This document shows, one piece after another, positions 30,501 through 35,200 of a DNA stretch of 64,000 bases (its first letter is position 1; every line of letters begins with the position of its first letter). Origin of the DNA: Flaccisagitta enflata (Eukaryota); contig OZ231126.1 in the NCBI GenBank assembly GCA_965153355.1, forward strand, positions 46,500,001-46,564,000, given 5' to 3'. Under the pieces are notes generated by a model. That model saw only the letters and a program-made list of their open reading frames with translations, did no database searches and was not told the origin of the DNA. A program made the translations under genes and the position numbers.

Positions 30501-31773
30501 ACCGATGGCAGTTCCGTACCTTGGTTCGGCCAACTGTGCAACGTGCTGTTTGTAGTAAGCGTCGGCAGAAGGGGCAGTTACCCAACCTTGCTGACGAATT
30601 TCAAGGAGTCGCAGGACTATGAGACGAATGGCTCGAACCCGGTTCGCCGGAATGTGAGGTGAATGGATGAACCTCCGCAACGCTCCGAATAACTCGCTCA
30701 CAATATCTGGGGAGAGAGAGAGAGAGAGAGAGAGAGAGAGAGAGAGAGAGAGAGAGAGAGAGAGAGAGAGAGAGAGAGAGAGAGAGAGAGAGAGAGACAG
30801 ACAGACAGAGAGAGTGTATGAGTGAGCGAAAGAAAGAAAGAAAGAAAGAAAGAAAGAAAGAAAGAAAGAAAGAAAGAAAGAAAGAAAGAAAGAAAGAAAG
30901 AAAAAAAGAATGAGAGAAAGAGAAAGTGTGAGTGAGCGAAAGAAAGAGAAAGACAGAAAGAAAGAAAGAAAGAAAGAAAGAAAGAAAGAAAGAAAGAAAG
31001 AAAGAAAGAGAGAAAGAGAGAAAGAGAAAGTGTGAGTGAGCGAAAGAAAGAGAAAGAAAGGCAGAAAGAAAGAAAGAAAGGCAGAAAGAAAGAAAGAAAG
31101 AAAGAAAGAAAGAAAGAAAATAAGAAAGAAAGAGAGAGAAAGAGTTTTAAAAGATGACAAAGGAAAGAAAGAAGGACAGAAGCATGGGAGCAGTTAAAAT
31201 GAATCGCAGGCTGAAAAGATGTCAAAGAGCGAGAGGTAGAGACGAGACGCTATTACGACAACACATGAAAACAAGGAAATTCTCTACGAACCTGTATGAG
31301 CTTGAGAGGGAATGGGGATTGTGAAAGATCGGTGTAATTACATGTAATCCTGACCAGGAAGAAGATGATCTTACCGGAATGAGAAGCTTCCAAAGCGGCG
31401 CCATATGAAAGGAGGAAGGTTGAGAGTTGGAAAAGTTGTTCGATTGTTGCACAGCCGGATTTTAATGCTTGTATCACAGATACTGGTAAAGATACGTCAG
31501 GACCTGAAAGGGAAAGTGTGAGAGGGAAGGAAGAGTTCAGGATTGACGGAAATGCGTCTGTAAGTCGATAACCGACAGAAAGCATACGTCCATTGATTAT
31601 CCACAAAAATTTTATGACTTACCTAAACTGGCGGGAAAGGCCACTTGGGAAGGTGCCGAGACTGGAGGCGTGGGATTTTGCTTTCTCGCCGTTACCGAGG
31701 CAGCGCCAACTCTTCCTACTTTACTGTCCAACTTAACACGTGCCCCTCGGCCTCGGCCCAACGAAGTGGACAT
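6588..31773 (-). CDS. Uncharacterised RNA-binding protein: N-terminal GRGRG, partial MIF4G-like (CTIF/SLIP1/PAIP1-type) helices, PABP-like RRM, low-complexity/acidic tail; ~21 exons
   Basis: Exons (-): 31773-31623, 31503-31375, 30706-30520, 30402-30280, 30173-29957, ~29483-29187, 29052-28928, 28623-28468, 28364-28236, 28084-28052, 27976-27772, 15774-15570, ~15355-15284, 15169-15044, 14622-14411, 14284-14123, 13980-13733, 13597-13530, 13396-13303, 7261-7150, 6704-6588 (TGA). Phases agree at all junctions except two uncertain acceptors (~29483, ~15355). An in-frame TAA lies just upstream of the ATG. Confidence 0.7.
7850..9752 (-). mobile_element. DINE-1/Helentron-type element with ~165-bp central tandem repeats (family C), with a duplicated or nested 5' end
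   Basis: Sub-terminal inverted motif GTCCCCGAC/GTCGGGGAC. Hairpin CGACGAAAACTGTTCGTCG at ~9253 and ~9727. Inserted in an A-run with no TSD; the empty site is visible in the right foldback arm. Confidence 0.75.
8439..8543. repeat. (GT)n microsatellite
   Basis: Direct reading. Other (CA/GT)n tracts at ~10654-10684, ~12033-12170, ~52920-52983. Confidence 0.95.
15570..15774 (-). CDS. RRM C-terminal half (RNP1) of gene 2, followed by RDH/RDY repeats
   Basis: Phase-1 acceptor then G|YGFVSFGSLEAATAAAAAMNGAELRTKRLFVDLAKRKEE, like PABP RRM4. This frame is not in the ORF track. Confidence 0.85.
16048..17728. mobile_element. Non-autonomous hAT-like element
   Basis: TIR TAAGGCCTTGCG/CGCAAGGCCTTA and 8-bp TSD CCCATAGC (16040-47, 17729-36). 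Contains (GA)n tracts and a nested family A element. Confidence 0.88.
16610..17412 (-). mobile_element. Family A DINE-1/Helentron-like element
   Basis: Sub-terminal inverted block GGGCAGCGGCCCCGAAGGGGACGAAGTCCTGTAGAACACAGGGGG, (GTCC)n, internal ~21-bp repeats, and 3' tail GGTACCGCTGACCAC..GGGCTGCTATT. Confidence 0.7.
17900..19010. repeat. GC-rich low-complexity region: (CCG/CCT)n tract, A-rich spacer, then (GGC/GGA)n tract
   Basis: C-rich at ~17910-18610, A-rich at ~18610-18780, G-rich at ~18781-19030. Confidence 0.85.
20630..20923. repeat. Degraded MITE-like inverted repeat
   Basis: Perfect 23-bp inverted pair AATGCTGTAGTTGTATAGAATTG (20630-52) and 20901-23. Confidence 0.55.
21135..24365. 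mobile_element. Cluster of family A elements with a 962-bp duplication and an inversion
   Basis: Copies at ~21135-21687, 21694-22440, ~22719-23402 and inverted ~23621-24253. The downstream flank is repeated three times. Confidence 0.8.
25546..27229 (-). mobile_element. Family C DINE-1/Helentron-type element, second copy
   Basis: Same ends as the 7850 copy (AAGCTTCAAAATTACAGTCCCCGACTGG ... CGACGAAAACTGTTCGTCGGGGAC). ~165-bp central repeats at ~26500-27000. Confidence 0.78.
25921..26408. repeat. 19-bp minisatellite (GAAGATGATGACAGTAGTT)n, about 25 copies
   Basis: Direct reading. Confidence 0.95.
27772..27976 (-). CDS. RRM N-terminal half (RNP2) of gene 2
   Basis: DLFVRHLHESVDDRILFSAFDSFDELLNARVQTDDDGYSK|G, ending at a phase-1 GT donor. 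Confidence 0.85.
30520..31503 (-). CDS. Exons encoding the C-terminal part of a MIF4G-like HEAT domain of gene 2
   Basis: FLLSYGAALE..DIVSELFGALRRFI..IRLIVLRLLEIRQQGW resembles the L..G..LE and LLELR..GW motifs that end MIF4G domains. Confidence 0.65.
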
Positions 31774-32249: not shown

Positions 32250-35200
32250 CTAAATCAACGACTTCAGAACGTCCATTTTCTTGGCCATTTCTTCGATCTT
32301 TTTGGAGGCTTCGGCGTTTTTCTTCTCCATTTCAGCCAATCTTTCCTTCAGGCTGTGGTTTTCATCCTTCAAGCTTCGATAATCTTCGTTCGTGGCGACA
32401 ACCGTTTGGTCTGCCACCGGGGCCAGCTTTGAATTCGTGGAGGCAGCGACGGCCGGATTCGCCTCGACGTTGTTGTTCATATCCACGACGTTGTTATTCA
32501 AATCCACGACGTTGTTATTCAAATCCACGACGTTGTTATTCAAATCCACGACAGTGGCGGAAGTGGATGGCTTGGTAGTCGGCCCCGCGTTCCTAATTTC
32601 GTCTTCCGCCAACTCGAGATAGCCTTCGTTTCTTAGCGACAAAGCGACATCGCTGCCGTCGACTACCAAACTCACGATCATGGTAGGAATGGCGCCCGTG
32701 GAATCGATTTCGTGACATCGAACTGCGACTTCCGCGTTGACAATATCGCTGAGAATCTGGCTGATGTCGGATCGAGGCCGAACAACCCCTCGGAGGGCGC
32801 AAGGAGCGCAGAGAGCCGGCAATTTCAGCAAATCGTTTGGAATGTCGACGAGATCCGTCGGAAGCAAAACCGCAGAATTGCCGTAGTCCACGAACCAAAC
32901 TTTGATCTTGTCTGAAAAGGGCGGAAAGGGAAGCGGAAGCGTTTAACAATTATGGTAGATCTTTGACAGCGCTCAGCGTATTGTAACGTGAGAGTTGAAA
33001 TAAGCTGTATACAAGATTCACCATCGCAACTACCTGGTTCCACGTCTTCAAAAGCTGCAGTTATCACGGCGCGATAGAGCTGTGAAGAGATAAGAAATTA
33101 GAAAATAGTTTCGTTCCTCCGCGTCCCACGATTTTAGGAAAAGATTGATCTCTCAAGATCATAAGCAGAAATTTAAATAATTTCACCTGTCCCTCGAATA
33201 GAGCCAAAACGGCTGCGCCGCGTTGTAACTGGCGTTTTTGATCTTCGAATATGCCTCTCCTGGTCATCAGCTCTTGGGTGGCCCCGAGTATGACCTCTTC
33301 CATTCCGGCGTAGATGGGCAGATCGCTCGACGGTTGCATCAAGAGAGCGATATCTTTGACACTGGCGACGTTCATGACGACGTTGTTGCTCTCTGCGCCA
33401 ACTTGCAAATAATTCATGACGATTTTCTTCTCGGGACCAGCTGGCAAGATCGTCGACGCCGGTGGGGTGGGTGATCGGACGACGGATCGCGGGATCATCG
33501 AAAGGGGCGAGGTGATCGCGGAAGGTGACGGATTGTTTTTCGCGATGACGGCAACGGAACGCGAGGTGGACTCGGGGACAGCAACCGTTGGCGAGGGAGC
33601 TATTGGCGTGAACTCCACTGGTGCAACGACTGGAGACGCCGCAATAACAGCCGCTGGTGGCGCGGAAGTAGGCGTCGGGGCAGCCACGGCGTTGTCAGCA
33701 GTTGCCCGAGAAGGCGCCGCTGAAGGGGTGGCCCTGGGAGCCGAAGCGGGTGCACCCCCAATTTTCGCGGCCAAGCCTTTCTCAACGAGGGTCTTCTGAA
33801 GCGCGACGTCGTTGAGAAGTAATATGACGAGAAAAACCTTGGACTCGGCGCTGTACTTGCGAACTTTGCAAGTGGAAACCGCTTCGGCGATCATAGCCTC
33901 CTAAAAAAGAGAAATTTGGAGTAAATTCTTCATAAGCATTCGTAGCTAACTCCAGGCGAATGTCATGGTATGCTCATCGAGAGATAGGCAGGCACCTGCA
34001 ACAAGGTCTGAGCATCGGAAGACCAATCAGACATTCCGGAGGGCAGGGTAAGACCGGAGAGCCGGCAACGAAGAGACTGCAGAGGCACGTCGTAGTGATT
34101 GCGAAGGATCTGTCGCACGTCTTTTAACGCCACCTAGACGATAAGACGATGTGCGTGATTAACTGTTCAAAACGATAGAAGATTCTAACTTTAGGACATT
34201 TTACATGAAAATAAAACAAGAGATAACCTGATCGCAGTTGCCGTAATCAATAAATCGCAAATTGACGACAGTTTCCGGTTTGGGCTCCGCGACGTCCTCC
34301 AACAACGCCGCTCGATACCATCCTTCGCTCCAAAGCGCCACCACCACCGTACCACATTTCAAAACGGAAGTCGTTGGGGACAGCGCATCAAGAAGAGGAG
34401 ACGTAGCCGGACCGTAAGCGTTGAGGTCCTGAGCCATAGCCAACATGTCGAAAGCCTCTTCTTTCAACGAGAGGTGGAAATCGACGGGGCTGATAAATTC
34501 GTTGATGTCGCAACTGACTGCCGCTCCCTCAACGAGAGACATGTGGCCTGAACATGCGAGAAAAAGTTTCCATGGAAATCAAGCGATTCCATCAAACGAT
34601 TCTGTTCTGATAACTCTGAGCGAGGGACTTACCTTGCGCCATGTCGGATAAGTTAAGCAACGAGTCGGCCGTGACGACAGGAGAACAGGGTGTCGACGCA
34701 ATGGCGGTGTTATCAGCACCAGTATCAACCGGAGTGGGAGCGACGGCGGCGGCTTGGGTGGAATATTTGGCGACGACCGCGTCGAAATCAGCCCTTGATT
34801 CGACGGGGGCGACCAAGTGCCTTTTATCAGGCAACTGCCGAATATTGTCGACAGAGAAAAAGCAGCCCTCCGGAAAGAGGTTGCGAATGGAAGAAACGTC
34901 GTCTTCACTCCATCCACTGACGTCGCCTATCGATGACAAAGAAAAGATAGTGGCGCTATTGAGAGACAGGACAATAAATGCGTCCTACTAAGATGTAAGA
35001 TAAAGATATCACGATATCAAGAAATAAAGATATTCAGATATCCCCCACAATGACAGACGGATCTAAAAAAGTCATTCCAACGAGACAGTAAGAACAGTCA
35101 TTCCAGTGAGACAGAAAGAAATGAACGCAAACGGAACTTATTTTATGTTAAGAAAGGCACGATGTTGATCGAAATAATAAAATATGCTTAGAACTGCACT

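Follow-up and report, generated by a model that had tools for sequence, protein, structure and literature searches.

The chaetognath Flaccisagitta enflata carries a multi-Tudor gene that is followed directly, on the same strand, by a gene for a protein with a GRGRG start, a MIF4G-like domain and an RNA recognition motif (RRM), and the locus raises the question of whether the two are joined by transcription alone or also by function. The window analysed is the whole stretch of 64,000 nucleotides (nt) from positions 46,500,001 to 46,564,000 of contig OZ231126.1 (assembly GCA_965153355.1). Coordinates refer to this window, and both genes, called here the Tudor gene (gene 1) and gene 2, lie on its minus strand. 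A preliminary description had proposed an operon-like reader/ligand pair, in which gene 2 encodes a ligand of the Tudor scaffold. Public RNA confirms the use of a chaetognath spliced leader (SL) at this locus, and the best explanation of the locus as a whole, and a probable one, is an SL-resolved operon junction with almost no spacer. The proposed partnership between the two proteins is a separate and far weaker proposition.

RNA from four runs, out of seven for the region, was aligned to positions 31200-35480, comprising 17 contigs from run X1, 12 from X2 and five from X3, together with raw reads from X7. In one contig (X1 record 1), 24 non-genomic bases are joined at 31808 and are followed by exons 1 and 2 of gene 2 and then by sequence matching the start of exon 3. 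These bases are the 3' end of chaetognath SL1 as tabulated in PMC2481426 (Table 3). The 24-mer was not found in the 64,000-nt window at up to four mismatches; it occurs 241 times in the whole genome assembly, against 0 for its reversed control. The leader exon ends in AAA, and the junction therefore falls exactly after the AG. None of the seven joints among the matches listed enters 31808, as befits an unpaired acceptor. Gene 2 is trans-spliced to SL1 at 31808, the position at which the preliminary description had predicted a leader to be joined.

The SL genes themselves lie in three tandem arrays outside the window, in units of ~735 bp, with a GTAAG donor after 17 of 17 exact copies examined. 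Each array unit (L023, G000:C3:89817000-89823500; L024; L031) pairs the SL1 gene with another that corresponds to SL3 as published, and a GT donor follows each. An Rfam search of the arrays returned no match, and the predicted SL RNA fold has a z of only -1.76. Dispersed leader copies on contig C1 (L003-L022) are followed by varied sequence, with GTAAG after 0 of 20; one (L003) is SL1 followed by an SL2-type leader and another (L021) holds two SL1 copies in tandem. Judged from sequence, these donor-less copies are probably retroposed leader-capped mRNAs, like relict leaders.

Between the Tudor stop codon (TAG, 32252-32250) and the gene 2 ATG (31773) there are 476 nt, of which 42% are T and 17% A. 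The same-strand layout first described therefore holds, with the distance of 477 bp corrected by one. The ATG at 31773 had been called the next one past the Tudor stop, but five others lie inside the gap; all of these are upstream of the acceptor, and 31773 is the first ATG downstream of it. The U-rich tract and the acceptor-like site 35 nt ahead of the ATG are present in the sequence as described, the latter ending in AAG at 31811-31809. A TAA in frame with the gene 2 ATG (31806-31804) excludes a fusion protein through the acceptor, again as described; with no joint into 31808 among the seven listed, a cis-spliced upstream exon was rejected along with the fusion. The sense strand of the gap does lack AATAAA and ATTAAA, but this is uninformative because 90% of 10,000 base shuffles of the 476 nt lack both as well. 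Neither hexamer occurs in any of five gaps along the gene chain considered below, a result that 27% of shuffles reproduce jointly, and the absence of a poly(A) signal was accordingly rejected as evidence.

Most of this gap is transcribed Tudor 3' untranslated region (UTR) rather than spacer. One contig (X2 record 8) extends without a break from 32516, in the last Tudor exon, as far as the acceptor G at 31809 and then carries six unaligned letters. Contigs of X3 reach 31899, and those of X1 are aligned to 32003, where they stop at a masked repeat, without depth over most of the stretch below. A second X2 contig (record 7) starts at 31808 with five leader-like bases, too few to call, and its run's allele is identical to the genome for eight bases beyond the acceptor; read-through of record 8 should therefore have aligned. 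The six terminal letters may thus be the start of a poly(A) tail, and this one contig would place the Tudor mRNA 3' end at or very near AG 31809, polyadenylated without AATAAA. In Spadella, 3 nt separate the poly(A) site from the acceptor in the case given in PMC2481426.

The junction is the last in a chain of seven genes on the same strand that spans ~70 kb, with member introns of up to 21 kb. From upstream to downstream, these encode a ubiquitin E2 (Pfam E 9e-45), an epimerase-domain protein that we take to be UXS1-like, an LSm/Sm-like protein (E 4e-4, below the cut-off), a selenophosphate synthetase with AIRS domains, a HAD phosphatase, the Tudor protein and gene 2. The distances from stop codon to candidate acceptor along the chain are 794, 220, 443 (measured in the second copy discussed below), 242 and 441 nt. 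At the last junction, the genes are on one strand and little or no DNA separates the upstream 3' end from the acceptor, as seen in X2 record 8. A single upstream promoter would serve the chain, and one polycistronic transcript, probably extending from the E2 gene to gene 2, would include the Tudor 3' UTR. At AG 31809 the spliceosome adds SL1 and so caps the gene 2 mRNA, and the Tudor 3' end would form at the acceptor without AATAAA. The members of such a chain would share transcription, probably broad or germline-rich in expression, and not one pathway.

Three features of the chain genes deserve mention in their own right. The E2 (L038) and HAD (L029:3957-4860) genes are intronless, unlike their neighbours. 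The selenophosphate synthetase gene (L029:9090-6617; L040:2075-1605) carries a TGA in frame close to the N-terminal end of its coding sequence, and in the gap to the HAD gene lies a pattern resembling a selenocysteine insertion sequence (SECIS), which an Rfam search of that gap did not confirm as a SECIS. A repeat insertion of 1.3 kb separates the synthetase stop from this SECIS-like element in the copy on the window side.

It could instead be supposed that gene 2 is transcribed as a monocistronic unit, trans-spliced but driven by a promoter of its own in or close to the Tudor 3' end, so that the overlap is only tight packing. In Paraspadella gotoi, about half of the genes are trans-spliced and 18% are in operons (PMC12460157, in its accessible text), and hence most trans-spliced genes lie outside operons; moreover, an outron overlapping the Tudor UTR could merge with it into one assembled contig. 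Against this, the RNA of three runs covers most or all of the gap and in one reaches the AG, which leaves no free room for a promoter, and the same geometry recurs along the chain. The monocistronic arrangement is therefore unlikely. Several observations nonetheless weigh against the operon junction. No contig spanning the acceptor, and hence no dicistronic RNA, is among the matches listed, although contigs drop rare forms; assembled contigs also cannot reveal ends, strand or single molecules, and a poly(A) start in the six terminal letters of X2 record 8 is conjectural. A clear leader comes from only one (X1) of the two runs covering the junction, the other (X2) giving the five leader-like bases, while X3 contigs do not cover it and X7, with 0 reads from ~6% of the run, is no test. 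RNA supports an acceptor only at the gene 2 junction, the five upstream genes having no RNA evidence here. Finally, the RNA is unassignable between the window copy and a near-identical copy 177 kb away. For the operon proposed in the preliminary description, the SL site is thus secured, and membership is strongly implied by RNA reaching the acceptor and by the seven-gene chain.

The second copy is 95-98% identical over the stretch from the LSm/Sm-like gene to exon 3 of gene 2 and lies 170-190 kb away; the next exons of gene 2 were found once. Of the 40 RNA variants listed out of 86, 22 carry the copy-2 base, and 22 of the 60 differences between the copies occur in that list, mixed within runs. 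This duplicate is likely an uncollapsed haplotype. The copy (G000:C1:46351000-46388000; L025, L026, L028, L040, L041) takes in the greater part of the chain but differs in its repeat insertions, and the 21.5-kb Tudor intron of the window is <1 kb there. Other close pairs of near-alike genes occur in the assembly, namely members of the eIF4E family (G000:C8:57.70 and 57.99 Mb) and Piwi-domain genes (G000:C6:28.05 and 28.07 Mb), and these paired loci suggest tandem haplotype duplication in the assembly. The eIF4E family as a whole occupies at least seven loci on contigs C3, C5, C8 and C9 of G000, two of them with long Gln/Asn-rich N-terminal extensions.

The features of the locus are collected in Table 1.

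Table 1. Positions of the features in the 64,000-nt window, from upstream to downstream on the minus strand
Feature	Position	Strand	Basis and remarks
Portion of the multi-Tudor gene that falls in the window: 15 of its 19 exons in the model, with the ATG outside at G000:C1:46567558	32250..64000	-	Gene model, Pfam and RNA
Final exon of the Tudor gene, with the end of core 8, short repeats, the coiled coil and the TAG stop	32250..32911	-	Sequence; RNA contigs in X1, X2 and X3
Stop-to-acceptor stretch, 441 nt: Tudor 3' UTR doubling as gene 2 outron	31809..32249	-	RNA contigs X1, X2 and X3
U-rich tract	31970..32000	-	Sequence; role putative
Trans-splice acceptor with T-rich tract, AG at 31810-31809; probable Tudor mRNA 3' end	31809..31828	-	Leader joined at 31808 (X1 record 1); X2 record 8 stops at 31809
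Gene 2 5' UTR, 35 nt, receives SL1; TAA at 31806-31804	31774..31808	-	Sequence and RNA contig
Coding span of gene 2: 926 residues, 18 exons in the model	6588..31773	-	Homolog-guided model; 67-70% identical to P0001-P0003; introns 1 and 2 RNA-supported
N-terminal GRGRGAR motif, candidate arginine-methylation site	31738..31773	-	Kept in P0002, P0003 and P0004
Domain of five helices encoded by exons 2-3, resembling the C-terminal half of MIF4G	30520..31503	-	AF2 pLDDT 87; structure and sequence matches
Small, highly conserved strand-strand-helix segment without an assigned family; possible KH remnant	28236..28578	-	Conservation and predicted model
RRM, interrupted by an intron of 12 kb (27772 to 15774)	15640..27900	-	Pfam RRM_1 E ~1e-12 to 1e-14 in homologs
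Motif resembling eIF4E-binding sites, with a Ser-Pro elbow	14171..14227	-	Conserved in 4 of 4 sequences; designed 4E-BP match E 0.074
ATTAAA and AATAAA, 751 and 861 nt past the gene 2 stop; candidate chain end	5721..5836	-	Sequence

The Tudor gene is modelled with 19 exons encoding 2220 residues, all introns being GT-AG and internal stops numbering 0; six of its introns are seen as joints in RNA contigs. Its product contains an RRM (Pfam RRM_1), a MYND finger (zf-MYND E 7.5e-10), eight extended-Tudor cores (Pfam TUDOR) and a C-terminal coiled coil. Scored by eye at what we take to be the aromatic cage positions, cores 1, 5, 6 and 7 (about half of the eight) keep four aromatics and the Asn; in core 2 a Glu replaces the Asn, and one aromatic is missing from each of cores 3, 4 and 8. 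The protein can probably read methyl-arginine, and its domains would make it a scaffold of the Vreteno/TDRD1 type, whose methyl-arginine ligands would by default be PIWI proteins. Vreteno has the layout RRM-MYND-Tudor (PMC10711660, in the part available), and Vreteno of Bombyx, Veneno of Aedes and TDRD1 share RRM, MYND and extended Tudor domains with gene 1 in that order. Gene 1 differs in having eight Tudor cores rather than two or three and in its C-terminal coiled coil, and the likeness is one of domain layout. The best matches of the last Tudor exon are weak ones to TDRD15, and one Tudor exon has no solved relative at E 0.01. A 362-residue open frame lies among repeats inside the 21.5-kb intron (42260-43348, plus strand) and is probably transposon-derived.

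The gene 2 model was guided by three homologs (P0001-P0003, 926-950 residues). Two exon-like open frames in its fifth intron (29481-29162 and 29052-28928, minus strand) have no match in the homologs and were excluded. Its N-terminus reads as the preliminary description had quoted it, and the GRGRGAR start, which lies in a disordered region, is intact in P0002, P0003 and P0004, P0001 being without its N-terminus; P0004 is only 46% identical to P0002 overall. For the five-helix domain that follows, the best structural match is to residues 124-217 of MIF4GD/SLIP1 (Z 9.8, root-mean-square deviation 3.1, 93 residues aligned), values that helical bundles commonly reach, though the sequence and Foldseek rankings agree with the match (E 0.06 and 0.14, respectively). 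Because the match covers only those residues, the domain amounts to half a MIF4G, and Pfam gives no MIF4G match in gene 2 or P0001-P0003; of the MIF4G domain first described, just the C-terminal part is present. The conserved middle segment has a strand-strand-helix core in the predicted model, with no KH chain among the matches listed in two fold searches and 0 matches in a sequence search of the PDB. The RRM is solid, and poly(A)-binding proteins are its closest counterparts among solved structures. In the eIF4E-binding (4E)-like motif, the Tyr is one residue nearer to Leu-Leu than in the canonical form (Tyr-x3-Leu-Leu), and three predicted complexes of this motif with the eIF4E of a relative (P0023) scored 0.77, 0.01 and 0.01, a spread that counts neither for nor against binding. 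No paralog of gene 2 was found beyond the tandem copy.

What kind of protein this makes gene 2 is a closer question. There is slightly more reason than not to regard it as a divergent Mextli-like translation regulator that would bind eIF4E, with an RRM and without a recognisable KH. Mextli proteins combine a MIF4G-like domain, a KH domain and C-terminal 4E motifs and act in the germline, and the eIF4E-binding consensus is YX4L-hydrophobic (PMC4573856, as far as its available text goes). Like Drosophila Mxt and C. elegans MXT-1, gene 2 has an N-terminal MIF4G-like element, here a partial domain, followed by a central RNA-binding module and a C-terminal 4E-like motif with a Ser-Pro elbow. It differs in its RRM, the spacing of the motif, its length (926 residues vs ~500-650) and the ~230 more residues after the motif. 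The three best Atlas clusters for gene 2 are Mextli, with 182-188 shared features, a lead only given that their scores (0.85-0.86) all fall below 0.9. Other results also count against this assignment. A profile of the N-terminal domain found, in 1.84 billion proteins, only seven, all close relatives by sequence, and no Mextli ortholog; Pfam finds no KH in P0001-P0003 or in the conserved middle segment, for which reason gene 2 was not filed as a Mextli member; and the missing Pfam MIF4G match and non-canonical motif spacing point the same way. The scarcity of relatives, the lack of a KH match, the MIF4GD/SLIP1 structure match and the PABP-like RRM would suit an independent chaetognath-specific mosaic of a MIF4GD/CTIF-type fragment and a PABP-like RRM, its 4E-like motif being coincidental. 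This is a serious possibility that falls somewhat short of even probability: Mextli, being absent from the structure library as a full domain, presumably could not score there, the Atlas clusters and the Mextli-like domain order favour a common origin, and the region of the 4E-like motif is among the most conserved stretches of gene 2. The listings of a literature search showed no publication on a chaetognath Mextli or on binding between Tudor and Mextli proteins.

A further proposal, compatible with the operon and adding a specific partnership to it, is that the pair has been kept together because the Tudor scaffold binds gene 2 through its methylated GRGRG, an interaction that would tether an eIF4E-binding RNA-binding protein to germ granules. 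The conservation of GRGRGAR in three homologs, down to the 46% identical P0004, and the four full cages of gene 1 are consistent with such binding, and the caged Tudor domain of Vreteno binds the methylated N-terminus of Ago3 in the account given by PMC10711660. Gene 2 also resembles a germline translation factor, for in the published accounts at hand Mextli is active in germline stem cells and co-purifies in C. elegans with two germ-granule eIF4Es. Yet the motif holds only three arginines, and five functionally unrelated genes share the chain at similar spacing, so that adjacency singles out no reader/ligand pair. All 37 Piwi-domain matches lie on contigs C4, C5, C6 and C9 and none on C1; known Tudor ligands are thus unlinked to gene 1, and linkage is not needed for binding of this kind. 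In P. gotoi, with its many trans-spliced and operon genes, the longest operon combines genes for ribosomal, ubiquitin and proteasome proteins, and most germline markers are genes of this sort (PMC12460157, available portion); with this composition and germline share, two adjacent RNA-regulatory genes are to be expected without any partnership. On synteny, a pattern scan and a protein scan of metagenome contigs both came up empty, none of the 392 pattern matches in the protein scan being confirmed, and six gene names are absent from three supplement PDFs of PMC12460157. Gene 2 as a Tudor ligand is accordingly speculative and improbable, and of the co-transcribed reader/ligand module first proposed, the operon part is strongly implied whereas the ligand part is only plausible. 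Less probable again is the fullest version, in which the methylated GRGRG tail of a phylum-specific Mextli derivative docks on the eight-Tudor Vreteno-type scaffold co-transcribed with it, so that an RRM-guided eIF4E-binding translation factor is tethered to nuage. The junction may then set the ratio of the partners, because the Tudor 3' end and the gene 2 leader would compete for one AG. If true, the ligand idea would link piRNA granules to cap-dependent translation.

The layout itself is unsurprising because operons with germline genes have already been described in Chaetognatha. The locus is probably a further example of that kind of operon, with a real SL trans-splicing junction. It contributes two candidate germline genes that merit annotation, one for a Vreteno-type protein with an expanded set of Tudors and one for a Mextli-like factor, restricted to the lineage, that has an RRM but no recognisable KH. 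It also provides a concrete case for upstream 3'-end formation without AATAAA in operons with zero spacer, the mechanism of which is left open for Ciona in the accessible text of PMC1488885. Compared with the published chaetognath operons, the window chain contains different genes and introns of up to 21 kb, and dicistronic RNA was not seen here. It resembles those of Spadella cephaloptera (RPS14-PCNA) and P. gotoi, as far as their available descriptions extend, in its use of SL1, its tight same-strand arrangement, a probable upstream 3' end that coincides with or adjoins the acceptor and a membership of mixed housekeeping genes. Relative to the operons of Ciona and C. elegans, the leader is unrelated and the poly(A) site would rest on one contig; the C. 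elegans SL1-type operons, moreover, keep AATAAA, unlike the gap in the window. In the zero-intercistron operons of Ciona, the hexamer is missing in most cases (16 of 18), as it is here, and both in these operons and in the SL1-type operons of C. elegans the upstream mRNA ends at the acceptor AG (PMC1488885, in the sections available), as the Tudor mRNA probably does.

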